Shown here: positions 219 to 16,202 of the stretch, piece by piece
How positions within the stretch are numbered: position 1 is the first letter of the stretch
How the letters are laid out: every line of letters starts with the position of its first letter
DNA from: a virus
Lineage: Duplodnaviria; Heunggongvirae; Uroviricota; Caudoviricetes
IMG/VR virus record: IMGVR_UViG_2740892442_000006
Reading direction: 5' to 3' (one strand)
Length of the DNA stretch: 16,507 nucleotides
Notes under the pieces: model-generated
The model's input: the letters and a program-made list of their open reading frames with translations, nothing else
Database searches by the model: none
Told to the model about the DNA's origin: nothing
Made by a program: the position numbers and the translations under genes

Positions 219-288
219 CCATAGTGAATAATGCACAATGCAGTGACTGGATACAGATATGGGAAACTATTACTTTTAAAGTCCGACA

Positions 289-316
289 TTCTTGATTCTT
301 GATTCTTGATTCTTGA
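289..316. repeat. Tandem heptamer repeat (TTCTTGA)x4, followed by a degenerate fifth unit TTACTTA at 317-323
   Basis: Read directly: four perfect head-to-tail copies, about 120 bp upstream of the ORF at 435. Confidence 0.9.
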
Positions 317-434
317 TTACTTAATCTAAGTAACCGTGCATTTTTATCCAGCTTCAACTATCCAATGAACCAGTATGTTCTGTAACATAAAAGCAGGCTA
401 TTTAGCCACAATCAATTGATAATTAGGCACTTAT

Positions 435-1487
435 ATGAAACTAAAAAAAATGCTTGAAATGGATTTCATCAAGGAGTTTCAAGAGCACCTAGAAACTGAC
501 TTTGAGCATGAACTCTTACATGCCAGTCTTCGCAACTATTGTTCTCATGGTAATCCTCTGCGCTTCAACAACTTTGCATTTGCAATACGTGAGCTAATAA
601 ATCATGTGCTGAAACGACTGGCACCAAATGACAGAGTTATGGCGTCTCCATGGTTCACTAAAAACAAAAATAACGCCACTGTTACCCGTAAACAGCAAGC
701 AAAATACATCGCCCAGAAGCATATACCCGATCAACTTCTTGATGATGTAGCTATCGAAAGACTAGATGATGGTATAGCATGGTTCAATAAAAACTATTCT
801 TCTTTAAACGATTACACCCATATTAGCGAACATTCATTTGATAGTAACCCCAAACAGTTTTTTGAGAGTGCTAAACTAATAATAGAACTGTGTAACATAA
901 TATTCGATACCTTCGATGAACTTGAGCGTGTTATTACCGAATCAATAATCGAGGAAGTACAGAATGAAGTTACTGACATCACAATGAATAATATCCCTGA
1001 CGAACTGGATATATTATCTTCACAAACAACTGTTGATTGGTGCAATGTTGAATCCATTGAGTTGCTGAACCTTGACGAAAATTATATTTATCTTTTGGTG
1101 CGCGGAATAGTTGAAATTACTAGGCAATACGGGCGTGGTGAGGATTACTTTGCACAGCAAGATTCTTATCCCTTCAAGTTTGCAGTCTCTATTCGCACTG
1201 ATAATTTCAATTTAATAGCACCATTACTTAACACTGTAGTAGTGGATACAGGCTCATGGTATGACGATGGCGAAGGATCTGCTCATTATGACACAATTTA
1301 TACAACCTCCAGATTTTTGGAGATGATCTCACATATAAAAATTAAACCAAAAACAAAGAGAAGATTGTTTCCTGAGCTTAGTACAGTAGTAACACTAGGG
1401 ATTCATGAAAGTGAAGGTATATCAGAATCGGTCGTCCCAGAAATATGTCATCTAAATCAAGGAAGCTTCAATTTAACTGAATTTTAG
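435..1487 (+). CDS. Hypothetical protein (cargo ORF A, 350 aa); no family recognised; contains an R-x4-H motif (RNYCSH, residues 33-38)
   Basis: Long ORF with an ATG start and a weak AGG upstream; first gene of a co-directional cluster in the AT-rich island. No ATPase or other catalytic signature recognised. Confidence 0.75.
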   Translation: MKLKKMLEMDFIKEFQEHLETDFEHELLHASLRNYCSHGNPLRFNNFAFAIRELINHVLKRLAPNDRVMASPWFTKNKNNATVTRKQQAKYIAQKHIPDQLLDDVAIERLDDGIAWFNKNYSSLNDYTHISEHSFDSNPKQFFESAKLIIELCNIIFDTFDELERVITESIIEEVQNEVTDITMNNIPDELDILSSQTTVDWCNVESIELLNLDENYIYLLVRGIVEITRQYGRGEDYFAQQDSYPFKFAVSIRTDNFNLIAPLLNTVVVDTGSWYDDGEGSAHYDTIYTTSRFLEMISHIKIKPKTKRRLFPELSTVVTLGIHESEGISESVVPEICHLNQGSFNLTEF

Positions 1488-1503: not shown

Positions 1504-2442
1504 ATGAAAATGTCTAATAAGATCTATAGCCTACAAAGAATGCCTACTGAAGCATTTAAGATATTTGCAATGTCATTGCCACATGGGCCTAATTATGGTA
1601 ATGCGGAATTACTTTCCGCTTGGTCAAATGAAAAAGGGCTTGGATATGGTGCAGTCCTTCAATACAGCAAAAATTCATATGGCCTTGTTGTGCTCAGGCG
1701 ACGGGAAGATTATGTGCTGGTACCTCTCGAGCATGAGATGTGTTTTACCGAGCAGGAGGCATTGGTGCATCTTGATAAGCACCTTTCAGCCGGAGGAGAT
1801 TTATTACCGATTCCATCTGGGCAATCACGTAGAGCCCGACTGGATCATGTTGGTGAGCGGAATGTTTGTCAGGCATTTATACAATTATCGTCCACGATAA
1901 AGTACCGAGGAGCATTTCATTTAATTGTCGAGCTCTATCTGGCATTACCAAAACCTGATGATAACTTCAGAACCGATCTCCAGACCCAAGGATTCAACTC
2001 TAGAATCTGGGAGCTATACCTTTTCGCATGTTTTAAAGAGCAGGGAATTAAAGTTTTTCAAGATTATCCATCTCCGGATTTTATGCTCATGAACGGTAAT
2101 AACAAAGCATATGTTGAGGCGGTCACCGCGAATCCAACTGGTCCGGGCAGCCTAAAGTTGCCTCAAACACAATTCCCCCCCGGAGATCGATTAGCTCGCA
2201 CAGCAGGTGATATGGCAGCACGGTTCGCTAAGACCATCAGATCTAAACTCCAGAGAAAGTATGAAGAACTACCGCATGTTAAAGGATTTCCATTTGCAAT
2301 CGCTATAGCGGATTTTAGCGGTGGGGGCACTATGGTCTGGTCTCGCGAGTCACTTCCAACCTATTTGTATGGGCAAACCGCACATACAGTCAAAACATCC
2401 AAAGGTATGAAGCTGCTGCATTATCAATTGAAAAGCTTTTAG
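1504..2442 (+). CDS. Hypothetical protein (cargo ORF B, 312 aa); family unknown
   Basis: ATG at 1504 preceded by GGAGAG at 1496-1501, 16 bp after the ORF A stop. The downstream frame-0 ORF overlaps its 3' end, so B and C may be one gene split by a frameshift. Confidence 0.75.
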   Translation: MKMSNKIYSLQRMPTEAFKIFAMSLPHGPNYGNAELLSAWSNEKGLGYGAVLQYSKNSYGLVVLRRREDYVLVPLEHEMCFTEQEALVHLDKHLSAGGDLLPIPSGQSRRARLDHVGERNVCQAFIQLSSTIKYRGAFHLIVELYLALPKPDDNFRTDLQTQGFNSRIWELYLFACFKEQGIKVFQDYPSPDFMLMNGNNKAYVEAVTANPTGPGSLKLPQTQFPPGDRLARTAGDMAARFAKTIRSKLQRKYEELPHVKGFPFAIAIADFSGGGTMVWSRESLPTYLYGQTAHTVKTSKGMKLLHYQLKSF

Positions 2443-2504: not shown

Positions 2505-2903
2505 TTGTTTAGTAATGCTGGAACATTGCCAAAATTCCAGCGAATGGCAATCCAAGCTGAATTTTCCTCACCTATTGTGAAAGCCCGCAGGGTTGGGATT
2601 TTATTTGATAGGACTGAAGGGGCCTTGGAACCAATTGACTTCGATCTAGATATTCAATCGCCTGAATATATTAATCTTTGCGATGGCAAAGAATTTTGGT
2701 GTTTTGAACTTGAAGTATTTCATAACCCTAATGCTGCTTATCCAATGTCCCATGATTTCCTGCCGGGGGCAACACATTGGTTTGAACACAATGGAGAGAT
2801 CATCTGTGAGACCCAATGGAAAAACCAGGTACTTGCATCAGTAACCGAGTTTAGTATTGTTCCAGATGTCGCCGATAAACTCAAAGCCAAGGAAAAGCCG
2901 TGA
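2505..2903 (+). CDS. Hypothetical protein (cargo ORF C, 132 aa as listed); possibly the C-terminal continuation of ORF B
   Basis: The frame is open from 2319 and reads like protein (...YEAAALSIEKLLGHVNIPAGLFNHPEIENLSAILF...), but has no ATG/GTG/TTG before the TTG at 2505 and no convincing Shine-Dalgarno before 2505 or the ATG at 2544. Confidence 0.5.
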   Translation: MFSNAGTLPKFQRMAIQAEFSSPIVKARRVGILFDRTEGALEPIDFDLDIQSPEYINLCDGKEFWCFELEVFHNPNAAYPMSHDFLPGATHWFEHNGEIICETQWKNQVLASVTEFSIVPDVADKLKAKEKP

Positions 2904-3006
2904 TTGCTTGATGCAAGCATATTCTTGAAAGAAGAAAATTGACAAGATTTAAAACTAATAATGAAGGGGGGAATGTTACGAGGTTGTCAGGGCTGCAACA
3001 GCAGCC

Positions 3007-3023
3007 CTGTGTCAGAAGCGGAC
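3007..3023. repeat. Partial direct copy of the palindromic repeat (CTGTGTCAGAAGCGGAC), just after an 8-bp-stem hairpin at 2988-3009
   Basis: 16 of 17 bases match copy 1 at 197-213. Hairpin CAGGGCTG-caacag-CAGCCCTG read directly. Sits between ORF C and the ORF at 3080. Confidence 0.6.
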
Positions 3024-3079
3024 ATTTTAAGCATTCGAGTGTAAGGTCTGTTTTTTAATTTGTAATTTTAGGAGGTAAC

Positions 3080-4033
3080 ATGCCAAAGAAAAGACGGTCT
3101 ATTAGCCAGGTAAAAGAAGACATTTCAATCAGGGTTCTGCGGGAAAAACTACCTCGCGAATGGGTCGTACATAGCTATGGCGCTGACTATGGTATTGATT
3201 GCGTTGTTGAATTATTTGATTTTATTGATGACAGTGAAAGTATTGCAGAAACCCTTGGTGAAAACTTCTTTGTACAACTAAAATCTTCAGATTGTATTGA
3301 ATATTGTACACGTAAAGCCTATGCTCGTGGAAATGTAACCAAAGGAAAGTTAACAGAAGATAAAAGCGATTTTGTCGAAATCCCTGTCGCAAAATTCAAG
3401 TTAGATATATCAGACATTTTGACTGTTCAGTCTATAGGTATTGCAATTCCAGTATTATTGATACTAGTTGACACTAATACAGAAAAGGCATTTTTTATTT
3501 GCCTTAATGATTACATAGATAAAGTTCTCATACCAGAAGACCCGAATTATTCTAAAAAAGACTCAAAGACTATATATATACCTCTTGAAAATGAAATTCT
3601 GGATGATGAAGATGCGCTTGTTCCATTACGTGCATATGGTAAAAGATCAAAAATGTATGGCGCATTCTCACTTTTTAACTATCAATTAAAAGAAATAAAC
3701 CGATTACAAGGTAAAGCGGCCGTACAATTTCCTGTCTCTTTCGATGAAGCTATAGAGATGGTAAATAACTTTATTGTAATTGCTCTTAGACAAGATATAT
3801 GGTCTGGTCATGAATTTTGGAAGCCGATGGTATCGAGCCAAAAGGAGTTGATCCAACTTCAAATAGATATTGATAAAGAGGTAAAACCTGAACATTATGA
3901 ACATTTTTTGAGTTACTGTTCCGAAGTGGTTTGGCATAAGTTAACAAATCTTTCAAATATGTATGAGGAGCTTGTTAGAGAATGGTTCATGCCAACCTTG
4001 CTAGCGACATTAACATCAGCCCGCCCTAAATAA
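3080..4033 (+). CDS. Hypothetical protein (cargo ORF D, 317 aa) with an N-terminal PD-(D/E)xK-like nuclease-fold motif candidate (DUF4365-like by recollection)
   Basis: Strong RBS AGGAGGT at 3068-3074, six nt before the ATG. N-terminal motifs in order: DYGID, VVELFDF, FVQLKSS, consistent with a D...E...QxK restriction-endonuclease-like core. Family assignment is from memory, not a search. Confidence 0.8.
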   Translation: MPKKRRSISQVKEDISIRVLREKLPREWVVHSYGADYGIDCVVELFDFIDDSESIAETLGENFFVQLKSSDCIEYCTRKAYARGNVTKGKLTEDKSDFVEIPVAKFKLDISDILTVQSIGIAIPVLLILVDTNTEKAFFICLNDYIDKVLIPEDPNYSKKDSKTIYIPLENEILDDEDALVPLRAYGKRSKMYGAFSLFNYQLKEINRLQGKAAVQFPVSFDEAIEMVNNFIVIALRQDIWSGHEFWKPMVSSQKELIQLQIDIDKEVKPEHYEHFLSYCSEVVWHKLTNLSNMYEELVREWFMPTLLATLTSARPK

Positions 4034-4293: not shown

Positions 4294-5397
4294 TTAGCCT
4301 TTTTTAATTTTATTTTTAGATTGTTCAATGTGATGATTTAACACTTCTCTCTTTGCCTCTTCATAGGTTAGCTCTCCATTGATTACCTTATTTTTTATTT
4401 CATTAAAAAATGAGGAGCCTTTGGGATCTTTACTTGATAAAAAAAGACTGGCTTCAGCTCTCCGAAAAGCTTCTTTCCTTGCTTCTATAGAAAATGAATT
4501 AGCAGGGTTATTTTTGTTCATAAGTTGAAGTGCCTTATTATTTATATTCGGGATGTTTTTATCTACAAGAGTTAGTCTTAACTCCGAGAATTTATTTCCT
4601 GATATTTTATAACACTGATTTTCATTTTTTTCAATATAAAGAGATTTGCTTTCTGCGCTACCACATGTCGTAGATGTTCTTGCATCAAGAAAAATAAACT
4701 TTTCTTGAAATCTTTCAATATATTTCATTGCTGTCATGCTAATAATAAAAAGAGCAACTGACACAGCAAAAAGGGATAAGCCTGATACTAAACGATTAAA
4801 ATTAAATTTCCTTTTAATAACTAATGAACTGGCTAGATTGACCATGTTATAGGGGACCATAATTATGAGTCCTATTAATATTATTTTTTCAGGAAGATTG
4901 TTCACTTGTATATGATGTTGAGCCAAGTTTCCAATATATACTGAAATCATAGAGGATATTACTATTTTTGCTGGGGATACATCTCGCAAAAATATGTATA
5001 TATAGACTGTAGTTGCACAAATCATTGCTCCTATTGGAAATGAGAGCATGAAAGCATAAGCTAATGTTGAGTAATTAAGATTTTCTGGGGCTATACCATA
5101 AGCTATGTCAAGCTTAAACTTTGCGATCCATAAGCATACTGAATATGTAAAGCCAGTTACGCCCCACTTAACCACTGTATTATTAAATACTTTATTTAAT
5201 AAATCACGATATCCTATGTATACACTGGTTAATAAAGCTATAGATGATAGAAAAATTGGAGCGGCAATGTATATATTTTCTAGCCATAATGGGTTTTCTA
5301 CAATCAAGTATCCAAAAGGTATTAAGTATATTATAGCCAATAGTTGAGGGTTGTTTAATTTGGATGATGCGTCAACCAAATTATTTTTATATTCCAT
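4294..5397 (-). CDS. Multi-pass inner-membrane protein (about seven hydrophobic segments in the N-terminal ~225 aa, then a ~140-aa charged soluble C-terminal domain); function unknown
   Basis: 367-aa ORF with AGGA about 7 nt upstream of the ATG. Starts 9 bp after the stop of the integrase at 5407-6480, on the same strand. Very AT-rich. Confidence 0.8.
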   Translation of the reverse strand: MEYKNNLVDASSKLNNPQLLAIIYLIPFGYLIVENPLWLENIYIAAPIFLSSIALLTSVYIGYRDLLNKVFNNTVVKWGVTGFTYSVCLWIAKFKLDIAYGIAPENLNYSTLAYAFMLSFPIGAMICATTVYIYIFLRDVSPAKIVISSMISVYIGNLAQHHIQVNNLPEKIILIGLIIMVPYNMVNLASSLVIKRKFNFNRLVSGLSLFAVSVALFIISMTAMKYIERFQEKFIFLDARTSTTCGSAESKSLYIEKNENQCYKISGNKFSELRLTLVDKNIPNINNKALQLMNKNNPANSFSIEARKEAFRRAEASLFLSSKDPKGSSFFNEIKNKVINGELTYEEAKREVLNHHIEQSKNKIKKG

Positions 5398-5406
5398 ATA
5401 ACGTCC

Positions 5407-6480
5407 TTATTTCAACTTTAACGCCAAATCTTCAGCTTTTGGATGATAATACCGCATTAGCATTCTTGGATCTTTATGTCCTGTAATTTTGGTCAGTTCA
5501 TGCATAGGGAAAATTTCAGCAAGTCGAGAAGTTGCTTCATGTCGAAGGTCATGAAATCTTAAATCTTTAAGGAATGATTCATCACATAATGAGTTTGTTT
5601 TCTCGTATCGTTCTCTGGCTCGTTTTACAGCTCGGTCAAAAGCTCGGGTAATCGCGTCTGCACGCATATCAAAAACCTTATCAGCAGCTGGCTTAGAATG
5701 TTCCTTGAGACTGGACAGTATCGTGATGGCTTTCGTTGATAAAGGGACATCGCGGGCATTACCATTCTTAGTATCCGGCAGATGTGCAACTCGCCGATCA
5801 AGATCGATAAAGCGCCATCGAAGATCTGCGATTTCGCTACGGCGCATGGCTGTCTCTAACGCCAGAAGAATGATTGCTGGCAATACTAATGAATGTGTTG
5901 CGGCGATGATATGTTCGATCTCGTTGGCTATTTCCTTTCCTGACGTAACACCGGTTTTCTCAGAAACTACAGGCAGCGCTTCCAGGCGTCTGGTCCTGGA
6001 GTTCTTGGGTTGAGGTTTGCGAATGGCCTCTACGGGGTTCAGCAGGCTCTCCATGCCCCATTCTTTCCGCGAAACGTTGAATACATGAGAAAGTAAGGCC
6101 AAACGCCTTAAAACGGTTGCAGGGGCATAGATTTTCAACCATTCATCTCTCAGCTTGGCGACATCGGCACTCCTGATGCTGGCCATATAGTTTTTCGCCA
6201 GCTGAGTGCCTTTTAGTATCCGCACCAATGATTGGTCTTGCACTGCCCCTTTTTTGTCGGGAACAATCTCTTTTTCATATCGCGTTAGGGCTTCATACAA
6301 TGTCGTAGATTCCGCTTCGCTGCGGCTAAGCCAAACTCCTCTCGCCATTTCTGACTCGATCATTTTGGCCCAAGCTTCTGCTTCTACTTTGGTGTTAAAG
6401 GTTTTGGTTTGAGAGGGAAAACCTCGTTTACGGATTTGAGCTTCCCATTGGTAGTTACCACGTTTGCGTATAGTCGCCAT
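5407..6480 (-). CDS. int: Tyrosine-type site-specific integrase (island integrase)
   Basis: C-terminal catalytic signature FHDLRHEATS...MRYYHP (H-x-x-R-H box and tyrosine). The ORF track starts at a TTG at 6510; the ATG at 6480 (MATIRKRGNYQWEAQIRKRG...) is the more likely start. Confidence 0.9.
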   Translation of the reverse strand: MATIRKRGNYQWEAQIRKRGFPSQTKTFNTKVEAEAWAKMIESEMARGVWLSRSEAESTTLYEALTRYEKEIVPDKKGAVQDQSLVRILKGTQLAKNYMASIRSADVAKLRDEWLKIYAPATVLRRLALLSHVFNVSRKEWGMESLLNPVEAIRKPQPKNSRTRRLEALPVVSEKTGVTSGKEIANEIEHIIAATHSLVLPAIILLALETAMRRSEIADLRWRFIDLDRRVAHLPDTKNGNARDVPLSTKAITILSSLKEHSKPAADKVFDMRADAITRAFDRAVKRARERYEKTNSLCDESFLKDLRFHDLRHEATSRLAEIFPMHELTKITGHKDPRMLMRYYHPKAEDLALKLK

Positions 6481-6568
6481 TTCTGTCTGATTCCTAACGA
6501 ACTGTGGCAATATTGTGGCAAAAAATCCATTTAAATTCGATAGGTATTGATTTTACAAGATCAATTTA

Positions 6569-6617
6569 CGCATTCGTAATGCGAAGGTCGTAGGTTCGAC
6601 TCCTATTATCGGCACCA
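6569..6617 (+). tRNA. 3'-terminal 49-nt fragment of tRNA-Thr (anticodon CGU); not a complete tRNA; likely an att-core direct-repeat copy
   Basis: Anticodon stem-loop with CGT at 6575-6577, T-arm GGTTCGACTCC, 3' acceptor strand and CCA. Matches the 3' part of enterobacterial thrW as I recall it. The upstream sequence has no 5' acceptor strand (GCCGATA) or D-arm. Confidence 0.8.
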
Positions 6618-6631
6618 TTTAAATCAATAAG

Positions 6632-7795
6632 TTACACATCATTAGTACCTTCCTTATTTTTTGACTGGGACAAATTTGGGACCGATGGGTTCAGGATCGA
6701 GTCTATTTGCCGTGCGTGTTCGGTAAGGTGATTAGGTGCAAGGTGAGCATATCGACGAACCATTTCGATAGACTCCCACCCTCCCATTTCCTGTAACACT
6801 GACAACGGGACTCCGGCTTGAACCAGCCAACTTGCCCAGGTGTGTCTCAAGTCGTGAAATCTGAAATCATCAATACCAGCCCGTCTCAGCGCCGCTTTCC
6901 AGGCTGTGTTTGCGTCATACCGCATCTTCCTTACTGTTGGCGCTTTCGTTCCGTCTGGTTTGGTACAGCTTTCCTTGTACACAAATACCCAACGGTGATG
7001 ATTCCCGATTTGTTTTTTCAATACGCGACATGCAGTATCATTCAGCGCAACGCCAATTGCGCGGTTTGATTTACTCTCTTCCGGGTTTATCCATGCCACC
7101 CGGCGCTGCATATCTATTTGTTGCCATTCAAGGTTGATGATGTTCGAGCGTCTTAAACCTGTTGCCAGTGCAAATTCAACAACAGACTTTAATGGCTCCG
7201 GACATTCATCAATCAGCCTTTGTGCTTCATGGGGCTCCAGCCAGCGGATCCGTTTATTCTTTGGTTGAGGCACTTTAATAATTGGTGCCTTATCCAGCAT
7301 TTTCCATTCACGCTCTGCGGCTCTTAGTAGGGCCTTTATAAATGAAAGATGCGTAGCCTTCGTTGCAACGGACGCTGGTTTTGGCGTGTATTCTGGAACA
7401 GGTTTCCCTTTTTTTCTGCATGCTTCTGCCCTGAGTTTCCAGTTTTCCTCATGACGCCGGTTCGTCATTTTCTGCATTGCTGAATAAATTTTTGATTCAG
7501 TAATGTCTCTTAGTTGCATTCCTGCGAAATGTTGAAGCCAGAATCCGATCCGGCTTTTGTCATCGTCCAGTGATTTTTTATGTGCTTTCTCTTCAAGCCA
7601 CCTGACACACGCTTCCTCGAACGTTATATCAGGTATTTCACCAAGTTTGCTGACCCGCCATGCTTCAGCCTTTAGCTTGTCATGGAGTTCTGTCGCCTGC
7701 CTTTTGTCCTTTGTTCCAAGAGACTGTTTAAATCTTTTACCGTTCGGCAATGTGAAACTGGCGTACCATATTTCACCTCTGCGGAAGAGTGACAT
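6632..7795 (-). CDS. int: Lambdoid (P22/SfV/e14-type) phage integrase
   Basis: N-terminus [34 protein letters not shown] is typical of this enterobacterial prophage integrase group; catalytic [10 protein letters not shown]...VRRYAHL. GAGGAA RBS. The 3' end lies 15 bp from the tRNA-Thr fragment. Confidence 0.92.
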
Positions 7796-8022
7796 TTTCT
7801 TTCCTCTGTTATGCCATCACCCGCGCTCACCTGGACAGTATGCAGCGGAGACTGAAGAGCCGCAATGCAGGCTTGTCGTGTTGTGAGGTAAGGAGATTTA
7901 TTCTTAGTGGGATCTTTGCGTGTTGCCTGAAGACGCCCTGTGCGTATCCAGTTAATGGCAGTCGGTCTGGATATCTTGAGAAAATGACAGGCCTCATCGA
8001 GTGTGAGGCTGTATGGCTCCAT
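7672..8022 (-). CDS. xis: Excisionase / AlpA-like HTH protein (about 117 aa from the ATG at 8022)
   Basis: [31 protein letters not shown] is a helix-turn-helix excisionase-like N-terminus. The ATG overlaps the upstream stop (ATGA). The 3' end overlaps the integrase start by about 124 bp in another frame, so the true stop is uncertain. Confidence 0.6.
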
Positions 8023-8327
8023 TATTTCACCTCTTGCTGTGACATTGTTGAAAAATGGATACCAGCTCGTTGCTGCCAGACGATCCAACCGAGAGTCATA
8101 TCCCATGCCATGTATTCGTTATCGCCGTTTTTTGCTCTCCGACGATCTACTAAGTCACCGAAACGCTTTTCCATGAATAATTCATAAGCTTCGCGTTCAT
8201 CTGGTTCTACTTCCAGCGATAGGAGTGCGATTTCATAAGCACGGCGCTCAATATCGTCTCGCACGTCAAGGCTGCTGATACGCTCTTTAATTTCTTTAAT
8301 CAGTTCTTTGTCGGTAAAAGTGATCAT
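8022..8327 (-). CDS. Hypothetical prophage early protein (101 aa)
   Basis: Coding-like codon usage; start overlaps the upstream stop (TAATG) and its stop overlaps the xis start, indicating one coupled operon. Confidence 0.65.
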   Translation of the reverse strand: MITFTDKELIKEIKERISSLDVRDDIERRAYEIALLSLEVEPDEREAYELFMEKRFGDLVDRRRAKNGDNEYMAWDMTLGWIVWQQRAGIHFSTMSQQEVK

Positions 8328-8689
8328 TATGCTCCAGCCTCCGGTGCTTTTGGCATTATTGCCCAGTGAGTGATATTGACGTTTTCAAGGTCCCCGACCT
8401 GAAATGTCCACTGCCATTCTCCGGTTTCTTTTTGTCCCCAGGTGTACCAGAGAGAACGCCTGCCAATTAGCCAGCCTTCTCCGTTAGCATCGAATAACAA
8501 AACACTTTCATTTGCTGGTGGCAGTTCAGCTGACACTGGTATTACTTTGTTTTCCTGTGCTGCACATTTAGCTTCAAGCGCATCGAATTTACGCACCAGG
8601 TATTCAGCATCTGTTTCATTTACTTTCAGATCTCGCGGTACACATCTCCCACGAAGAAACCCTTCCATTTCGAAAACATTCATGCGCAT
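8327..8689 (-). CDS. Hypothetical prophage early protein (120 aa)
   Basis: ORF in the same minus-strand operon, overlapping both neighbours by a few bases. Confidence 0.65.
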   Translation of the reverse strand: MRMNVFEMEGFLRGRCVPRDLKVNETDAEYLVRKFDALEAKCAAQENKVIPVSAELPPANESVLLFDANGEGWLIGRRSLWYTWGQKETGEWQWTFQVGDLENVNITHWAIMPKAPEAGA

Positions 8690-9243
8690 TTGCGTAACTC
8701 CGATAACTCGTTAAAACGTTCCATAAACATCCCGTAGGCATGGCCCGGTGCCTGTGGAATCACTTTGAACATCTCTGTTGCCGGGATACCTTCCAGTACA
8801 GGCCAGAAAGAGCCATCATCAAGCCCGAGATCGCGGCGTTCGGTTGCCAGCATAATGAGATCGGCATATTTCACTGGCGTGCTCATAACAGGAGGTAACC
8901 CGTATTTCTCACGTATTACGGCGTCTATTTTTTCTTCCATCCGTTTATAGTCAGGAAGAAGTCGTTTCAGTGGTGCGGGGATGTCCTGGCAATATGCTTC
9001 TGTTGCATCATGCATTAAAGCTTCAAAAGCAAATTCCTGTGGCACCAGCTGGCTGCAAAGCACCGCATGTTGGGCGACACTGTAGAAGTGTGAAAGATGT
9101 CCTGCAAAGCGACAGATATTTGAAAGGGAAACCGCGATATCGTTAATAACGATGTCGTCTTTATTTATCCTGTCATAATAAAAATGCTTCCCGGAAAAAG
9201 TTTTAATAAATGACATTTTGTTCTCCACGTATATGCGCTGCAC
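8680..9243 (-). CDS. HD-domain phosphohydrolase (YfdR-like, as found in enterobacterial prophages)
   Basis: Ordered H...HD motifs (SVAQHAVLCSQL then ALMHDATEAY) in a protein of about 187 aa; first gene of the leftward operon ending in xis and int. Confidence 0.65.
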   Translation of the reverse strand: MQRIYVENKMSFIKTFSGKHFYYDRINKDDIVINDIAVSLSNICRFAGHLSHFYSVAQHAVLCSQLVPQEFAFEALMHDATEAYCQDIPAPLKRLLPDYKRMEEKIDAVIREKYGLPPVMSTPVKYADLIMLATERRDLGLDDGSFWPVLEGIPATEMFKVIPQAPGHAYGMFMERFNELSELRKCA

Positions 9244-9340
9244 CGCGCTGAATTCGGGTAAAAGGAAGCCCTCACCGTCCGGCGATTATTGAGTCAATTA
9301 CATTTCCATAAATGCCCCCGTAGGGCGGTTAGTTTCTCCA

Positions 9341-9427
9341 CAAAACAGAGAAGAACACCTGCGGTGGCAGCCGCCCGGATGGATTGGGTTATGAGCCCGT
9401 CGTCCGGTGATGCTCTTCTCTGTTTTG
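9341..9427. repeat. Inverted repeat: 17-bp arms (CAAAACAGAGAAGAACA at 9341-9357 and its complement at 9411-9427, one mismatch) around a 53-bp spacer
   Basis: Read directly, in the 435-bp region between the divergent minus-strand and plus-strand prophage operons. Confidence 0.7.
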
Positions 9428-9473
9428 TAAAAAGGACGGTATCCGCCTGACGGCTAATCAGGCATATCACCAG

Positions 9474-9677
9474 ATGGTGAAGCTGGGGATCGTCGAGCAG
9501 CGCGAACGATACAGCCGTACCGCGATTAACAACATCAAAAAATTCTGGTCGCTGACAGCGAAAGGCTGCATGTTCGGCAAGAACATCACCAGTCCTGCAA
9601 ATCCGCGCGAGACGCAGCCGCATTTCTTCGAATCCCGATTCCCTGAGCTGTTAAAGCTGCTCGATACCGTTCATTGA
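9474..9677 (+). CDS. Possible small ORF (67 aa) just upstream of the DUF968-like gene
   Basis: ATG start, coding-like third-position bias, stop 1 bp before the next gene; no recognisable family. Competes with a minus-strand ORF that I rejected. Confidence 0.3.
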   Translation: MVKLGIVEQRERYSRTAINNIKKFWSLTAKGCMFGKNITSPANPRETQPHFFESRFPELLKLLDTVH

Positions 9678-9678
9678 G

Positions 9679-10674
9679 GTGACCGTGAGAGCACTACTGA
9701 CCCCTGAAATAGCCCCGCGTATGGGGATCGTATTGTTCAGACCCGGTTCAGAGCTGATGCCCCTGTTTATGCAGGGGCGTGTCCTGCTGGAGCCTGAGCC
9801 GGAACGTTATTCATCTTTCGCCAGTGGTGCCGTTCCCGCGGCATCACAACCGCTGGCGGATGATCCTGCCGTTCGAGCCGTGTTCTGCAATGAGGCAGTG
9901 ATCCGTCGTGCTGGTGGCGTGGAATGTCTTGAAAGCTGGTTACTTCGTGAAAAGGGCTGTCAGTGGCCTCATTCCGACTGGCACAGCGAGAACATGACCA
10001 CAATGCGACACGCGCCGGGCGCGATCCGTCTGTGCTGGCACTGCGATAACCAGCTGCGCGATCAGTTCACGGAACGGCTGGAATCAATGGCAACGGATAA
10101 CTGTGCCCGCTGGGTGTTGTCTGTTGTGCGTCGGGATCTCGGTTTTGATGACAGTCACGTTGTGACAATGCCGGAACTGTGCTGGTGGCTGATTCGTAAT
10201 GACCTGGCGGATGCCTTACCGGAAAGTGCAGCCCGTAAGGCACTGAGATTACCGAAGCCTGTTGTGCCGTCTGTCACCCGGGAAAGTGACCTTGTGCCTT
10301 CGGTTCCTGCCACCAGCATCATCCAGGATAAGGCGAAAAAGGTGCTGGCGCTGAAAGTGGATCCGGAGTCGCCGGAGTCTTTTATGTTACGCCCAAAACG
10401 TCGCCGCTGGGTTAATGAAAAGTACACGCGCTGGGTTAAGACACAGCCGTGTGCATGTTGTGGAAAGCCTGCTGATGATCCCCACCACCTGATAGGCCAC
10501 GGTCAGGGTGGGATGGGTACAAAAGCGCATGACCTCTTTGTGTTGCCTTTGTGCAGAAAGCATCACGACGAGCTGCATGCGGATACCGTGGCATTTGAAG
10601 AGAAGTATGGCTCCCAGCTGGAGCTGATATTTCGTTTTATCGATCGTGCGCTGGCAATAGGCGTACTGGCGTAA
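9679..10674 (+). CDS. Prophage protein with a C-terminal HNH-like Cys/His cluster (DUF968-like)
   Basis: 331-aa ORF with a GTG start. C-terminus CACCGKPADDPHHLIGHGQGG...CRKHHDELH is a zinc-finger/HNH-type signature. Sits immediately upstream of Q, as in the nin region of lambdoid phages. Confidence 0.65.
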   Translation: MTVRALLTPEIAPRMGIVLFRPGSELMPLFMQGRVLLEPEPERYSSFASGAVPAASQPLADDPAVRAVFCNEAVIRRAGGVECLESWLLREKGCQWPHSDWHSENMTTMRHAPGAIRLCWHCDNQLRDQFTERLESMATDNCARWVLSVVRRDLGFDDSHVVTMPELCWWLIRNDLADALPESAARKALRLPKPVVPSVTRESDLVPSVPATSIIQDKAKKVLALKVDPESPESFMLRPKRRRWVNEKYTRWVKTQPCACCGKPADDPHHLIGHGQGGMGTKAHDLFVLPLCRKHHDELHADTVAFEEKYGSQLELIFRFIDRALAIGVLA

Positions 10675-10687
10675 GTGGAGAACGAGC

Positions 10688-11416
10688 ATGAACCTTGAAG
10701 CTTTACCAAAATATTACTCCCCAAAATCTCCAAAATTGAGTGATGACGCACCGGCGACAGGCTCGGGTGGTTTAACAATTACAGATGTGATGGCTGCGCA
10801 GGGGATGGTGCAGTCGAAAGCACCGCTTGGGTTTGCCTTATTCCTGGCAAAAGTTGGTGTTCAGGATCCTCAGTTTGCGATTGAAGGTCTGCTCAATTAC
10901 GCGATGGCACTGGATAACCCGACATTGAACAAATTGAGTGAAGAAATCCGGTTACAGATCATCCCTTACCTTGTGAATTTTGCCTTTGCTGATTATTCCA
11001 GGTCTGCGGCAAGTAAGGCTCGCTGTGAGCATTGTGCTGGTACTGGATTTCATAATGTATTGCGCGAGGTGGTGAAACACTCCAGAAGCGGGGAATCTGT
11101 TATCAAGGAAGAGTGGGTGAAGGAACTATGTCAGCATTGTCATGGTAAGGGAGAAGTCAGCACAGCGTGCAGAGGGTGTAAGGGTAAAGGTATTGTCCTG
11201 GATGAAAAAAGGACCCGGCTTCATGGCACGCCTGTTTATAAGATTTGTGGGCGTTGCAATGGAAACCGATTTAGCCGTTTACCAACCACACTGGCGCGGA
11301 ATCATGTCCAGAAGCTGGTACCAGACCTGCCGAAGATCTGGGAAAAGTCACTTTCCGCCCGTCCATCACGGCTTATGTGGTGGGAGATGACTGCTTTGAC
11401 CAGCGCGATCGCCTGA
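10688..11416 (+). CDS. Q: Late-gene antiterminator Q homolog (lambda Q family); C-terminus probably altered by a deletion junction
   Basis: N-terminus MNLEALPKYYSPKSPKLSDD...TDVMAAQGM parallels lambda Q as I recall it, followed by CxxCxGxG zinc-finger repeats. The last ~30 codons overlap an N-like reading frame. Confidence 0.75.
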   Translation: MNLEALPKYYSPKSPKLSDDAPATGSGGLTITDVMAAQGMVQSKAPLGFALFLAKVGVQDPQFAIEGLLNYAMALDNPTLNKLSEEIRLQIIPYLVNFAFADYSRSAASKARCEHCAGTGFHNVLREVVKHSRSGESVIKEEWVKELCQHCHGKGEVSTACRGCKGKGIVLDEKRTRLHGTPVYKICGRCNGNRFSRLPTTLARNHVQKLVPDLPKIWEKSLSARPSRLMWWEMTALTSAIA

Positions 11417-12531
11417 TTGACGCGCTGAATAAACCCGGTCCCGGCACGCTTGTCCACCCGACATACGGTGAGTTGAAAGTCTGTGTTGACGGGGAAGTTC
11501 GGGTCAGCACATCGAAGAGTGAAGGGCGTATTGTCCGCTTTGACCTGAAGTTTGTCGAAGCGGGAGATCTCTCTTACCCCACATCAGGCGTGGCGACGGC
11601 GCAGACGCTGATGTCATCCTGTTCTGCACTGGATGACTGCATCAGTGACAGCTTCAGCGGTTTCAGTATCGATGGCGTGGCAGATTTTGTGCAGAACGAC
11701 GTCGTCGGTAATGTCGGCACAATGCTTGGGTATGTTTCTGATGCGATGAAAGTGGTGGATTCTGCCGTATCGGATGCCGCCAGGCTGTTGCAGGGGGATA
11801 TCTCGGTACTTCTTCCGCCGCCATCGTCAGGCAAAAATTTCGTTGAGCAGGTGCAGAAAATGTGGCGTACCGGGAAACGCCTTTATGGTAACGCCAGCGA
11901 CCTGGTCACCATGATCAAAACGCTTTCCGGTGTCAGCCTTGGCAGCGATCTGCAACCGCGCGGCGTCTGGAAAACGGACAGTAAAACCACCGCCACGGCG
12001 ACGCAGCAGCGTAACGTGGTTGCCAGCACCCTTCGTACGACCGCAATCAGCGAAGCGGCGTATGTCGTCACACGATTGCCTGCGCCCACAACTTCCGCGG
12101 TGATGCAGAATGCCACAGTGGGGCAGTCAACAACACCCGCGCAGAGCACCGGCTGGCCTTCTGTCACGCATCCGGCACTGAACAATGCACCGGCGGTGAA
12201 AAACACGGTTGACCTGCCAACGTGGGAAGAACTGACCGACATTCGCGACACACTGAATACGGCAATTGATAAGGAGTTGTCCCGTACAACCAGTGATGCG
12301 CTGTTTCTGGTGCTGCGCCGGGTGAAAGCAGATCTGAATGCGGATATCAACACGCGCCTTGAACAGTCTGCACGGATCATTCAGCGCACGCCGGATGAGG
12401 TTTTACCCGCGCTGGTGCTGGCGGCGACCTGGTTTGATAACGCGGCGCGTGACGCGGACATTATCCGGCGTAATGCCATTACGCATCCCGGCTTTGTGCC
12501 GGTGATCCCTCTGAAGGTGCCAGTGCAATGA
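11377..12531 (+). pseudogene. Mu gp43 (N)-like DNA circularization / tail protein, 5'-truncated
   Basis: Similar in length and position to Mu N, but about 100 residues shorter than I recall for the family. The frame is open from 11275 and overlaps the Q 3' end. GTG start only. Stop overlaps the next start (ATGA). Confidence 0.6.
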
Positions 12532-13606
12532 ACGACAATGTCACGCTACGGGTAAATGGCCGGGAGTGGAATGGCTGGACATCGGTGCGCATCGGTGCCG
12601 GTATTGAACGGCTGGCGCGGGATTTCAGTGTGGAGATCACCCGCCAGTGGCCGGGAGATGAGGGTATCACCACGCTTCAGCCGCGCATTAAAAACGGTTC
12701 AAAAGTGGAAGTGCTGATTGGTGATGAGCTGGTGATCACCGGCTGGGTGGAGGCGACGCCCGTTCGTTACGATGCCCGTTCGGTCAGCACCGGTATTGCC
12801 GGACGTAGTCTGACGGCTGACCTGATTGACTGTGCAGCCGAACCGACACAGTTTAACGGACGCTCGCTGGTGCAGATTGCGCAGGCGCTTGCTGCGCCTT
12901 TCGGCATTGAGGTGGTGAACAGCGGTGCGCCGTCGGGTGTTATTCCTGATGTTCAGCCTGATCACGGTGAAACGGTGATTGAGGTAATAAACAAAATACT
13001 CGGTCAGCAGCAGGCGCTGGCTTACGACGACCCGCACGGCAGGCTGGTGATTGGCGGTATTGGCTCAACGCGGCACATACCGCGCTGGTACTTGGGGAAA
13101 ACATCCTTTCCTGCGATACGGAGAAGAGTATCCGGGAGCGGTTTTCTGTTTACCAGGTGGCGGGGCAGCGTGCCGGAAACGACGATGATTTCGGTGAGGT
13201 CACCACCACCGCGCTGCGGGCCCGCACAGAGGACGCATTTATTGCCCGTTACCGTCCGATGTATATCAGGCAGACAGGGCAGGCCACGGGGGCAGGCTGT
13301 ATTGCGCGTGCTGACTTTGAAGCCCGACAACGGGCGGCGCGGACGGATGAAACCACCTATGTGGTGCAGGGCTGGCGACAGGGTAACGGTACGCTGTGGC
13401 AGCCCAACCAGCGGGTGATTGTCTTTGATCCGGTCTGTGGTTTCGACAATACCGAACTGCTTGTCTCGGAAGTCACGTTTACTCAGGACCAGAACGGCAC
13501 CCTGACGGAAATCCGTGTCGGCCCGCCTGATGCTTATCTGCCTGAACCCGAAGCCCCCGGCGCGCGGAAAAAGAAAAAAGCCAGAGTACAGGAGGACCCG
13601 TTCTGA
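12528..13606 (+). pseudogene. Mu gp44 (P)-like baseplate hub / tail protein, interrupted by a frameshift near 13065-13080
   Basis: Frame 0 (12528-13418) and frame 2 (open upstream of 13157, to 13606) each read like protein: ...GGIGSTRH then ...TALVLGENILSCDTEKSIRERFSVYQVAGQ... The combined length of about 359 aa fits the family. Confidence 0.6.
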
Positions 13607-14154
13607 TGAGGACGATTGAAGCCATGCAGCGACAACTTCTCGGCCTGATTGCGCGGGCAGTGGTGAAAAGCATCAGTGCCGCCACGAAATGTCAGACCGT
13701 GGATGTGTCCCTGATTGCCGGTGAACCCAAAGCCGGGGTTGAACATCTTGAACCCTACGGTTTTACCGCAAGGGCAAACAGCGGCGCGGAAGCGGTGGTG
13801 TTGTTTCCGGATGGCGACCGTTCTCATGCGGTGGTTGTTACGGTGTCGGACCGGCGCTACCGCCTGAAAGGGTTGCAGACGGGTGAGGTGGCTGTCTATG
13901 ACGATCAGGGGCAGTCTGTGACGCTGACCCGGGAGGGGATCGTGGTGGACGGTGCAGGTAAAACGATCACGTTTCGCAATTCACCTAAAGCACGTTTTGA
14001 AATGGACCTGGAAGTGACAGGACAGGTGAAAGACCTGTGCGACTCCAGCGGCACTACCATGTCAGCGATGCGGCTTGCCTATAACGGGCATCGTCACAGA
14101 GAGAACGGTCAGGGCAGTAACACCGACAAACCGGATAAAGCGATGGAGGCATGA
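13606..14154 (+). CDS. Mu gp45-like baseplate assembly / spike protein (gpV-like)
   Basis: About 182 aa, translationally coupled to its neighbours (TGATG upstream, ATGA downstream); position and size match a Mu-type baseplate module. Confidence 0.65.
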   Translation: MRTIEAMQRQLLGLIARAVVKSISAATKCQTVDVSLIAGEPKAGVEHLEPYGFTARANSGAEAVVLFPDGDRSHAVVVTVSDRRYRLKGLQTGEVAVYDDQGQSVTLTREGIVVDGAGKTITFRNSPKARFEMDLEVTGQVKDLCDSSGTTMSAMRLAYNGHRHRENGQGSNTDKPDKAMEA

Positions 14155-14579
14155 TGGAACTGTGGCTGACGGTGAACGGTAAACGCACCTGCGCCAGCGC
14201 ACCGCTGGATCCGCTGACCCGCGCCGTGGTGATTTCCCTGTTTACCTGGCGGCGGGCGGAGCCTGATGACAACGCCGACGTCCCGATGGGATGGTGGGGG
14301 GATACCTGGCCTGCGGTACAGAATGACCGTTACGGCTCCCGACTGTGGCTGCTTCAGCGCAGCAAACTGACCAATCAGCTGGTGCAGACAGTAAGGGGGT
14401 ATATCCGCGAATGCCTGCAATGGATGATTGATGACGGCGTGGTGTCCCGTATTGATCTGGATATCCGCCGCACCGGGATTAATGAGCTGGGTAACAGTAT
14501 CACCCTCTGGCGTCGTGACGGACCGGTAATGATTTCTTTTGATGATCTGTGGAGTGCGATAACGCATGGCGGACAGTGA
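14151..14579 (+). CDS. Mu gp46-like baseplate protein
   Basis: About 142 aa, overlapping both neighbours; order gp45-gp46-gp47-gp48 is conserved. Confidence 0.65.
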   Translation: MMELWLTVNGKRTCASAPLDPLTRAVVISLFTWRRAEPDDNADVPMGWWGDTWPAVQNDRYGSRLWLLQRSKLTNQLVQTVRGYIRECLQWMIDDGVVSRIDLDIRRTGINELGNSITLWRRDGPVMISFDDLWSAITHGGQ

Positions 14580-15624: not shown

Positions 15625-16199
15625 CAAACGATGATTACATCCGCCTGTTATCGGCACTGTTGCCGCCCGGTCCGGCGTGGTCAGCCAGCGATCCGGCGAT
15701 TGCCGGTGCGGCACCGTCATTAACCCGTGTTCATCAGCGTGCGGATGCCCTGATGCGGGAGCTGGATCCGCGCACCACCACTGAACTGATAAACCGCTGG
15801 GAGCGTCTGTGCGGTCTGCCGGATGAATGTATTCCGGCGGGAACGCAGACCCTTCGCCAGCGTCAGCAACGGCTGGATGCGAAGGTTAACCTGGCGGGCG
15901 GCATCAACGAGGATTTTTATCTTGCACAGCTTGCTGCCCTGGGCAGACCAGATGCCACCATCACGCGATACGACAAAAGCACGTTCACCTGCTCATCGGC
16001 CTGTACTGACGCGGTGAATGCGCCGGAATGGCGGTATTACTGGCAGGTCAACATGCCAGCCGCCACCAACACCACCTGGATGACATGTGGCGATCCCTGT
16101 GATTCCGCACTGCGTATCTGGGGTGACACCGTTGTCGAGTGTGTGCTTAACAAACTCTGCCCGTCGCATACCTACGTAATTTTTAAATATCCGGAGTAA
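15615..16199 (+). CDS. Mu gp48-like tail protein (DUF2313 / YmfQ-like)
   Basis: About 194 aa; N-terminus [23 protein letters not shown] resembles the YmfQ family as I recall it; immediately precedes the tail fiber gene. Confidence 0.65.
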
Positions 16200-16202
16200 T
16201 CC

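Follow-up and report, generated by a model that had tools for sequence, protein, structure and literature searches.

The stretch of DNA analysed here, called the window, is the whole 16,507-nucleotide virus record IMGVR_UViG_2740892442_000006 from IMG/VR, which is assigned to the Caudoviricetes. Within it, the end of an island inserted at thrW carries an integrase gene, a gene for a predicted membrane protein (gene 1) and a small gene for a VbhA-like protein (gene 2), all on the same strand (Table 1). In Escherichia coli TUM10008, the intact thrW is found about 19.7 kb to the left of the displaced tRNA fragment, and in another locus (L026) an intact tRNA-Thr(CGU) lies at the far end of an island of only 2.7 kb. 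Copies of the integrase occur in 107 E. coli genomes and fall into three sequence types. Behind it, the layout consists of a variable membrane-anchored gene, a conserved VbhA-like gene that lacks the inhibitory glutamate of its relatives, and convergent remnants of conjugation genes (TrbL, TrbJ and TraJ).

Table 1. Features at the integrase end of the thrW island, in window positions.
Feature	Coordinates	Strand	Remarks
Gene 2, 75 aa, three-helix	4294..4521	-	PHROG 22101; WP_001039069.1, RefSeq 'antitoxin VbhA family protein'
367-aa ORF, ATG to stop	4294..5397	-	as read in the window; a chimera of gene 1 and gene 2
Gene 1, 296 aa, 7-TM, frameshifted in the window	4508..5397	-	PHROG 26661; WP_087902574.1 in TUM10008
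Single-base deletion	4533..4534	.	plus strand CC versus CCC in every related genome; gap after window position 4532
AGGA ribosome-binding site of gene 1	5404..5407	-	overlaps the integrase stop codon (5407-5409); read from the sequence
Island tyrosine integrase, 357 aa from the RefSeq start	5407..6480	-	Pfam Phage_integrase 3.7e-26; ORF extends to TTG at 6510
Displaced 3' part of thrW (tRNA-Thr CGU, anticodon stem to CCA)	6570..6617	+	integrase-proximal island end

As it stands in the window, the region behind the integrase reads as a single open reading frame of 367 codons. The first-pass annotation described this ORF as following the integrase after a short gap, with its own ribosome-binding site and about seven hydrophobic segments, and these observations are confirmed. 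The integrase ORF ends at 5407, leaving a gap of 9 nt (5398-5406), the AGGA motif (5407-5404 on the minus strand) is located 7 nt ahead of the ATG, and seven hydrophobic segments are found at residues of about 19-37, 44-62, 76-94, 113-136, 143-160, 172-190 and 203-221. The lysine- and glutamate-rich C-terminal region of about 140 aa that was also described is not one domain of one protein. It consists mostly of gene 2, which is joined to gene 1 by a 1-nt deletion specific to the window.

Comparison of the window with E. coli TUM10008 (NZ_CP135658.1) reveals five 1-nt deletions and zero substitutions over 16.5 kb. All five fall in runs of G or C, which, together with the lack of substitutions, is a pattern characteristic of sequencing or assembly error. 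The other four are located at 405, 2411, 9322 and 13071, and two of these also disrupt known genes, namely a PD-T7-1 homologue and a baseplate protein gene. In intact copies, the ATG of gene 2 is located within gene 1, so that the two genes overlap by 14 nt. In the window, translation that begins in the 296-aa gene is carried by the deletion at 4533-4534 into the frame of the 75-aa gene. As a result, residues 1-288 of the ORF correspond to gene 1 and residues 293-367 to gene 2. The deletion is found in none of the 59 complete E. coli genomes that carry the same stretch, and the 24 listed of 54 full-length records measure 1105 bp, versus 1104 in the window, with two annotated genes each. The exact 296-aa product occurs on 231 contigs and the exact 75-aa product on at least 1000 contigs. 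Among about 15 billion public proteins, the 367-aa product has no exact counterpart. The lengths of the homologues found span 218-331 aa, without a natural fusion among them, and PHROGs holds two separate profiles, of 296 and 75 positions. On these sequence comparisons, the 367-aa ORF is a chimera of two separate, translationally coupled genes, joined by one missing base.

Most probably, the deletion itself arose as an error of assembly. That the sequenced strain carries it as a real mutation is formally conceivable, and it would then still be a recent private lesion. It is highly improbable that the fusion is genuine and that the source strain makes a 7-TM protein with a VbhA-like domain on its C-terminus. 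The reading frame is open in the window as given, and neighbouring partner genes commonly merge in evolution. Against this stand the pattern of the five deletions, the absence of the fusion from every other genome, contig and protein searched, and the topology predicted for gene 1, which would send a normally cytoplasmic three-helix protein to the periplasm. A programmed frameshift that makes the fusion was also considered and rejected, since the small gene differs in spacing and frame among the three island types, so that no conserved programmed frameshift is possible.

The restored product of gene 1 matches phrog_26661 over its whole length (positions 1-296 of 296, 1.3e-198), a family labelled 'unknown function'. 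A dN/dS of 0.21 versus Dickeya and the absence of indels point to purifying selection on this gene. In the AlphaFold2 model (mean pLDDT 76), seven transmembrane (TM) helices are followed by a three-stranded sheet. The loops predicted to be cytoplasmic contain 11 lysine and arginine residues, and those predicted to be periplasmic contain 3. Hydropathy and these charge counts suggest an inner membrane protein with its N-terminus inside and its C-terminus outside, in which residues from about 222 to 296 are predicted to form a small periplasmic beta domain (roughly 70 aa) with a pair of cysteines, C245 and C262. Both cysteines are invariant, as are D238 and Y254 in the same domain, and N97, Y100, I102 and Y109 are conserved in the loop between TM3 and TM4. 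The conserved residues would thus appear to face the periplasm. The family is small and accessory, with 17 representatives among 1.84 billion cluster representatives and presence in 88 of 5426 E. coli genomes. The GC content of the cargo is 30-33%, versus 46-48% for the integrase.

Homology to a transporter or core membrane protein, which the first-pass annotation had named as a refutation of its reading, was not observed, as no family in Pfam or NCBIfam is matched above threshold. Fold searches returned generic helical matches only, with no transporter or other known fold, and in PADLOC, Pfam and NCBIfam gene 1 matches no known exclusion or defence family. Two weak profile matches were treated as noise: EamA in the type 2 variant (E 0.0019, 18.9 bits versus a cut-off of 28.2) and TIGR03982 (E 0.029, far under the cut-off). 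The EamA match is the only hint that gene 1 could be an ordinary transporter or housekeeping membrane protein that lies beside the integrase by chance. The small number of representatives, the patchy distribution in E. coli, the AT-richness and the lack of a family at threshold all speak against such a protein, and this explanation is given almost no weight.

The 75-aa product of gene 2 matches phrog_22101 from end to end (1-75 of 75, 4.4e-49), and this family is likewise labelled 'unknown function'. A dN/dS of 0.39 without indels points to purifying selection here as well. The AlphaFold2 model contains helices at residues 12-30, 37-47 and 53-74, and an export signal is lacking. Class I Fic antitoxins carry the motif (S/T)xxxE(G/N) on an inhibitory helix, and the glutamate in this motif obstructs ATP binding (PMC3667792). 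At the corresponding position, the island proteins read S-L-F-L-S-S (type 1), S-L-Y-L-S-G (type 2) and S-L-Y-L-S-N (type 3), and the glutamate is replaced by serine in every aligned island copy, bar a single row of one alignment (A4). Plasmid relatives annotated as 'VbhA family' (38-47% identity, E down to 5e-6 in tblastn) carry S-L-[RK]-L-E-G instead. These plasmid relatives stand alone, for example as the sole gene besides rep on a 2.4-kb plasmid.

Gene 2 aligns in register with VbhA and the plasmid relatives, and these alignments argue that gene 2 shares descent with the VbhA/FicA antitoxins. The profile scores are low: Pfam VbhA (PF18495) covers residues 35-60 only, with E 0.12 and 12.8 bits versus a cut-off of 25.9, where VbhA itself obtains 47.2 bits. 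NCBIfam gives no match for gene 2, the hhalign comparison with VbhA is not significant though in register (E 0.094), and neither a single sequence nor the family profile retrieved VbhA among solved structures by sequence. A six-frame ORF search of 13 loci, which took in the complete 19.7-kb island, found no Fic motif HxFx[DE][GA]N[GK]R. In addition, gene 2 has a membrane gene ahead of it and no Fic gene behind it, its next neighbour being convergent (a DUF4365 gene or a 70-aa ORF). With serine in place of the glutamate, gene 2 presumably cannot serve as a classical Fic inhibitor. A role as the island excisionase was considered and rejected, because the protein is all-helical and its close relatives occur on plasmids without an integrase.

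The position of gene 1 directly behind the integrase had been regarded as unusual cargo placement. Comparison of islands reveals the opposite: the order of integrase, membrane gene and small gene is the conserved end of the thrW island family, and it is kept in E. coli, Dickeya, Pectobacterium, Lonsdalea, Enterobacter and Pantoea. Dickeya, Pectobacterium and Lonsdalea share the same two-gene layout with a 14-nt overlap, and in two E. coli loci (L037 and L038) the overlap is 11 nt. Among the three island types, the membrane gene and the small gene overlap by 14 nt in one, stand 13 nt apart in another and adjoin with a gap of 0 nt in the remaining one, and the small gene directly follows the membrane gene in every intact island copy.

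The three types differ strongly in what the slot contains. The integrases of type 1 and type 2 are 93% identical at the nucleotide level and their small genes are 70% identical, whereas their copies of gene 1 are not alignable as nucleotides and share 23% amino-acid identity (E 1e-29), the type 2 protein being 315 aa long. The type 3 slot is occupied by an unrelated protein of 466 aa that combines two TM segments with a coiled coil, and a VbhA-like ORF of 62 aa comes next. The nucleotide similarity between the island types ends exactly at the integrase stop codon, and across E. coli lineages the middle slot contains three unrelated or highly divergent genes, none of which is matched by the PADLOC models. 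Elsewhere on the island, defence genes are present: PD-T7-1, an Aga nuclease and an HNH gene adjoining an ATPase gene. There is no terminator-like site in or near the 9-nt junction between the integrase and gene 1, and no promoter-like site upstream of gene 1 on the minus strand. Co-transcription of the integrase and gene 1, as proposed in the first-pass annotation, is therefore plausible, and all three genes may be transcribed from the integrase promoter.

Relatives of gene 1 have also been observed outside the thrW island. They are found, alone, between gpV and gpS of P2-like prophages, and the S-V interval is an established location for morons (PMC6823313). Further relatives neighbour a NotI-type restriction-modification pair or are near TIR and DUF6602 genes, and one has no partner gene at its place between ychF and budA. 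Members of a 218-aa subfamily consistently occupy an operon with the order AraC, PF00144 hydrolase, 218-aa gene. Some relatives are thus located off mobile elements, which points to a more general envelope role. A homologue search seeded with the family alignment gave, among the best candidates, almost exclusively close relatives. A scan of genome contigs yielded five loci, and tblastn searches of isolated phages with the E. coli protein and the P2-prophage relative returned no match. In the literature on VbhA with membrane proteins or integrases and on thrW defence hotspots, nothing on the pair of gene 1 and gene 2 was found.

Taken together, the best explanation combines a fusion artefact, a variable slot of the thrW island and a proposed cargo role for its occupant, and as a whole it is given a probability of roughly 80%. 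Gene 1 would be accessory cargo that acts at the periplasmic face of the inner membrane, where it could block the entry of foreign DNA, either as phage superinfection exclusion or as exclusion of competing elements. The gene behaves as a dispensable accessory gene on mobile elements, as expected for exclusion genes, given its place in the thrW-island and P2-like S-V slots and its occurrence in a small minority of E. coli genomes. That it is envelope-acting cargo which excludes phages or incoming DNA is nevertheless a tentative proposal, held at rather less than even odds. The hypervariability of the slot and the P2-like moron position of relatives lend some indirect support to the exclusion or abortive-infection idea of the first-pass annotation. 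Against the proposed cargo role stand the lack of a match to known exclusion or defence families and the relatives located off mobile elements. Gene 2 would be the conserved backbone partner, and could be a cytoplasmic regulator of the membrane protein or a Fic-binding decoy. In a broader and distinctly speculative form, which is considered unlikely as a whole, the interval between the integrase and the VbhA-like gene would be a hotspot reserved for membrane-anchored effectors of exclusion or defence, each encoded by a single gene. PHROG 26661 would then represent a new periplasm-facing superinfection-exclusion class, and the glutamate-less VbhA-like protein would be the common cytoplasmic partner, for example as a Fic-derived adaptor, or as a decoy that has lost the ability to inhibit AMPylation.

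The close coupling of the two genes could also be that of a toxin-antitoxin or abortive-infection pair. A toxic membrane effector, for example a depolarising one, would be neutralised by the VbhA-like protein, and the effect of the pair would be either stabilisation of the island or death of infected cells. The small protein descends, by its alignments, from a genuine antitoxin family, the two genes lie close together in each of the three island types, no intact island copy of the membrane gene lacks the small gene behind it, and membrane proteins are common abortive-infection effectors (PMC9122126). The co-occurrence is neither obligatory nor specific. The membrane gene occurs without a VbhA-like ORF in at least seven contexts, including P2-like prophages, a 442-kb replicon, a Pantoea megaplasmid and a chromosomal site. 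The small protein also follows the unrelated 466-aa protein of type 3, which is unexpected for a specific antitoxin, and its plasmid relatives stand alone. Furthermore, the conserved residues of the membrane protein are predicted to face the periplasm, while the small protein lacks an export signal. A pair of this kind is therefore considered rather improbable.

Modification of the cell envelope (surface polysaccharide or peptidoglycan) as a form of lysogenic conversion, with exclusion as a side effect, is another reading of the same features. Multi-TM gtr and oac genes responsible for lysogenic conversion adjoin the integrases of Shigella and Salmonella phages. Gene 1 also adjoins an integrase, it is hypervariable and AT-rich, and its product has several TM segments as well as conserved residues that probably face the periplasm. 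The distant 218-aa subfamily is in an operon with a PF00144 serine hydrolase gene of the beta-lactamase/D-Ala-D-Ala carboxypeptidase type. Yet no similarity to GT-C glycosyltransferases, acyltransferase-3 or another enzyme fold is found, partner genes of the gtrA/gtrB type are absent, and the periplasmic domain of only about 70 aa offers no obvious catalytic set beyond one invariant Asp and the Cys pair. Envelope modification is thus judged less likely still than a toxin-antitoxin pair, and the exclusion cargo described above is preferred.

The main value of these results is a correction: the combination of seven TM segments with a charged tail of 140 aa stems from a missing base and is not worth pursuing. 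As the window contains at least four more such errors, other frame-dependent findings in it need comparison with a clean genome. What emerges in its place is a one-gene variable slot right behind the integrase of the thrW island, which holds different membrane-anchored proteins in different strains. Because the slot is variable and one family of its occupants is also found in the P2-like moron slot, these proteins are reasonable candidates for exclusion and defence screens. In addition, a VbhA-like clade without the inhibitory glutamate or a Fic partner raises the role of antitoxin-derived orphans on mobile elements.

Compared with the class I Fic antitoxins of the VbhA/FicA group (Bartonella VbhA, PDB 3SHG chain B, and E. 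coli YhfG), gene 2 is likewise a small three-helix protein, and it is in register with VbhA over the inhibitory helix (A-S-x-x-L-x-x..P) and the G-E-[LI]-T helix. It differs in having serine for the inhibitory glutamate, in lacking a Fic gene and in scoring below the PF18495 cut-off. P22 SieA and T4 Imm are examples of superinfection-exclusion membrane proteins. Like moron and superinfection-exclusion membrane proteins, gene 1 is AT-rich, accessory and hypervariable between near-identical backbones, and its predicted location is the inner membrane, with conserved residues on the periplasmic side. Among the P2 moron slots (old/tin, fun(Z) and orf30), its relatives occupy exactly the orf30 slot, between genes V and S. 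In the profile and fold searches, gene 1 shows no similarity to any named exclusion protein, and some of its relatives are chromosomal and operonic with a hydrolase gene. The general pattern of cargo hotspots has been described (PMC9122126 and PMC10121019). As in such hotspots (P4 psu-int, the P2 hotspots and defence-carrying IMEs in E. coli), a short interval between conserved genes, here the integrase and the VbhA-like gene, holds alternative unrelated genes, and the thrW island also bears recognised defence genes. It differs from these in that each occupant of the thrW slot is one membrane-anchored gene and not a multi-gene system.

The 367-aa open reading frame (ORF) and the tyrosine integrase gene (int) are separated by 9 nt, and an AGGA sequence lies 7 nt before the ATG of the ORF, where it overlaps the integrase stop codon. 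The GC content is 30-33% across the ORF and 46-48% in the integrase. In a consensus scan, no terminator-like site was found at or near the 9-nt junction, and upstream of the ORF the minus strand has no promoter-like site; the minus-strand promoter-like matches in this stretch are all internal to the ORF. The first-pass annotation, which had placed the ORF on the same strand as the integrase with a 9-nt gap and its own AGGA, therefore described the position correctly. However, it had also read the ORF as a single protein with a charged C-terminal domain, and this protein is a chimera of two genes. The window matches the E. coli TUM10008 genome (NZ_CP135658.1) over its full length with zero substitutions and five single-base deletions, the third of which lies inside the ORF. 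At this locus, the RefSeq annotation of TUM10008 has two genes, encoding a 296-aa hypothetical protein (gene 1) and a 75-aa 'antitoxin VbhA family protein' (gene 2), with the ATG of gene 2 located 14 nt inside the end of gene 1. The missing base puts gene 1 into the frame of gene 2, and the ORF therefore consists of gene 1 (residues 1-288), a four-residue out-of-frame linker (ALQL) and gene 2.

Multiple comparisons show that the natural form is two tightly coupled genes and not a fusion. Among 54 full-length E. coli records, the 24 listed all span 1105 bp, not 1104, with two annotated genes each, and an exact match to an 80-bp probe across the deletion site was found in 0 of 59 genomes. No exact copy of the fused protein exists among about 15 billion public proteins, in which the exact 296-aa protein occurs on 231 contigs and the exact 75-aa protein on at least 1000. 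The homologues found in two large protein collections all have lengths of 218-331 aa, and in PHROGs the genes are covered by separate profiles, one of exactly 296 and one of exactly 75 positions. Dickeya, Pectobacterium and Lonsdalea have both genes with the 14-nt overlap kept; in further E. coli contigs both are kept with an 11-nt overlap. Between E. coli and Dickeya, purifying selection is observed without indels (omega 0.21 for gene 1, 0.39 for gene 2 and 0.09 for int). That the 367-aa fusion is a real protein is very improbable, and hardly more can be said for the deletion being a real mutation; five homopolymer deletions without a substitution are what sequencing or assembly error would be expected to produce. 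For the most part, the feature in its first description is an artefact. The five deletions in G or C runs look like uncorrected errors, and observations based on reading frames anywhere in the window need to be checked against a clean genome.

Coordinates of features in the window and in comparison loci
Feature	Locus	Position	Strand	Remarks
Single-base deletions	window	405, 2411, 4532/4533, 9322, 13071		all in short G or C runs; relative to TUM10008
Aga (pPIWI-associating) nuclease	window	435-1487	+	Pfam pP_pnuc_1, pP_pnuc_2; PADLOC Aga_Nuclease 1.4e-58
PD-T7-1 homologue	window	1504-2442 + 2505-2903	+	464 aa in reference; split by deletion at 2411
DUF4365 protein	window	3080-4033	+	after PD-T7-1
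367-aa ORF, ATG to stop	window	4294..5397	-	sequence reading
Tyrosine integrase	window	5407..6480	-	Pfam Phage_integrase 3.7e-26
P22-type integrase of decayed prophage	window	6632-7795
Baseplate gene	window	12528-13606		split by deletion at 13071; intact in reference
62-aa VbhA-like ORF, unannotated	L031, E. coli 2017-01-4CC (NZ_AP027745.1)	3381-3566	-	type 3; motif SLYLSN
VbhA-family orphan	L028, pJJ1886_4	2953-3150		S-L-x-L-E-G; korA-incC-korB region of conjugative plasmid
VbhA-family orphan	L029, 2.4-kb ColpVC plasmid	239-424		S-L-x-L-E-G; sole gene besides rep
Minimal island	L026, Candidatus Pantoea haifensis	4803-7548		about 2.7 kb

The about seven hydrophobic segments noted earlier belong to gene 1: hydropathy gives seven, and an AF2 model (block alignment of 21 sequences; mean pLDDT 76.3, pTM 0.63) contains seven transmembrane (TM) helices, a short helix and then a three-stranded sheet at residues 253-279. 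The loops carry 11 K+R on one side and 3 on the other, a distribution that supports a topology with the N-terminus in and the C-terminus out. In an alignment of twelve family members, with identity down to 20%, C88, I102, L216, D238, C245, Y254 and C262 are invariant and K77, W78, T81, N97, Y100, Y109, Y114, L237, K257 and Y263 nearly so. Since most of these residues are located in the predicted periplasmic TM3-TM4 loop or the C-terminal domain, the working surface is apparently on the periplasmic side; C245 and C262 may form a disulfide. Gene 1 is a member of PHROG 26661, labelled function unknown, and no named family was found for it; that it encodes an ordinary transporter is extremely doubtful.

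In TUM10008, the island runs from the intact thrW (tRNA-Thr) to a displaced thrW 3' fragment (window 6570-6617) over about 19.7 kb. From thrW onwards it contains a DUF4297 gene, a coiled-coil gene, an HNH gene, an AAA ATPase gene and HigA, followed by TraJ, TrbJ and TrbL remnants with IS1 copies, and then an Aga-type nuclease, PD-T7-1, DUF4365, gene 2, gene 1 and int. The intact 464-aa protein matches PD-T7-1 in PADLOC at 3.8e-83 and PD-T7-5 more weakly, and no Argonaute gene adjoins the Aga nuclease. The nuclease, PD-T7-1 and DUF4365 genes lie between an IS1 and gene 2 and look like a later insertion, because they are missing from simpler island versions. In many genomes, RefSeq places a 112-nt 'tRNA-Ser' at window 6505-6617 (+). 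ARAGORN finds no tRNA there and Rfam scores 22 bits (cut-off 29); only 6570-6617 is tRNA-like, with the anticodon loop UUCGUAA (CGU, Thr), and the stretch is read instead as the displaced thrW 3' part joined to island DNA. To the right of the fragment, window 6632-16507 holds a decayed composite prophage, which also contains yfdR/S/T-like genes, DUF968, truncated antitermination and DNA-circularisation genes and Mu/P2-type baseplate genes.

The island integrase was found in 107 E. coli genomes as three sequence types, type 1 being that of the window, and their comparison shows that genes 1 and 2 sit in a hypervariable slot behind it; both are probably co-transcribed with int. Through int, types 1 and 2 are 93% identical at the nucleotide level, and the similarity ends at the int stop codon; their membrane genes share 23% protein identity (E 1e-29), and their small genes are 70% identical. 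In type 3, the slot holds an unrelated 466-aa protein that combines two N-terminal TM segments and a long coiled coil; a VbhA-like ORF starts directly after its stop codon, so the small gene is conserved while the preceding gene is swapped. The island end therefore has the layout int, variable membrane-anchored gene, conserved VbhA-like gene lacking the motif Glu. Some versions of the island are reduced to hardly more than int, the membrane gene and the small gene: Lonsdalea has a short island beside proA, and the Candidatus Pantoea haifensis island, between a thrW 3' fragment and an intact tRNA-Thr(CGU), consists solely of the integrase and a type-2 membrane gene, which is frameshifted in that assembly, and lacks a VbhA-like gene. 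In E. coli FAM21845 and HH107, an IS1-mediated rearrangement has interrupted the membrane gene near residue 220, so that a truncated gene of 229 aa stands beside int and corA lies between both halves of the island end.

The RefSeq name of gene 2 was not reproduced by profile searches. Pfam VbhA scores 12.8 bits (cut-off 25.9), there is no NCBIfam match, VbhA was not retrieved in PDB sequence and profile searches, and hhalign against VbhA gives E 0.094. Using tblastn, plasmid proteins with 38-47% identity were found that read F-x-K-A-E-A-S-L-[RK]-L-E-G-M-D-P-S-G. These carry the canonical inhibitory motif (S/T)xxxE(G/N) (PMC3667792), and their alignments with VbhA and with the island protein are in register, which makes homology of gene 2 to VbhA through plasmid intermediates credible. 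In all compared island copies except one alignment row, the motif Glu is Ser. Since an E-to-G change by itself lifts Fic inhibition (PMC3667792), classical inhibition of a Fic enzyme is not expected of this protein. The six-frame ORFs of 13 loci, the whole island included, contain no Fic motif; gene 2 belongs to the VbhA lineage but lacks both the Glu and a Fic partner. The plasmid relatives are likewise orphans without a Fic gene, and 31 of the 38 plasmids with a match are conjugative.

Outside the thrW island family, gene 1 relatives stand alone, without the small gene. They are found between gpV and gpS of P2-like prophages, one of three recognised moron regions (PMC6823313), adjoining a NotI-type restriction-modification pair, near TIR and DUF6602 genes on a Pantoea megaplasmid, and between ychF and budA. 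A distant subfamily of 218-220 aa (L006, L032, L033; metagenome contigs) keeps the C-terminal Cys-pair domain and always follows an AraC regulator and a PF00144 beta-lactamase-family hydrolase, with an overlapping or adjacent start; a Na/H exchanger comes next in the two contigs that extend further. This operon may indicate a function connected with the envelope outside mobile elements, and envelope modification by gene 1 is a rather improbable reading of the island protein. Somewhat less improbable, though still unlikely, is that genes 1 and 2 form a toxin-antitoxin or abortive-infection pair. This reading is weakened because the membrane gene is found alone elsewhere, the same small gene stands behind an unrelated protein in type 3, and, in the predicted topology, the membrane protein has its conserved face across the membrane from the small protein. 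Tentatively, with a probability of about one in three, gene 1 encodes an accessory protein that hinders foreign-DNA entry at the inner membrane, as superinfection exclusion or exclusion of competing elements. Entry exclusion is preferred because gene 1 behaves like cargo, has relatives at a prophage moron site, lies near defence genes and is conserved on its predicted periplasmic face. The protein would sit in the inner membrane with its N-terminus in, its C-terminus out and a periplasmic working face, and would interfere with incoming foreign DNA, leading to exclusion of phages or competing elements.

With the artefact set aside, the locus holds two accessory genes, already catalogued but uncharacterised, in a variable slot next to the integrase. 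Gene 2 is related to the class I Fic antitoxins but lacks three features that define them, namely the motif Glu, a Fic neighbour and a sufficient profile score, and is not classed as a functional VbhA-type antitoxin. The arrangement of the slot resembles the cargo hotspots of P4, P2 and integrative mobilizable elements (PMC9122126, PMC10121019); unlike these, it holds a single membrane-anchored gene each time.
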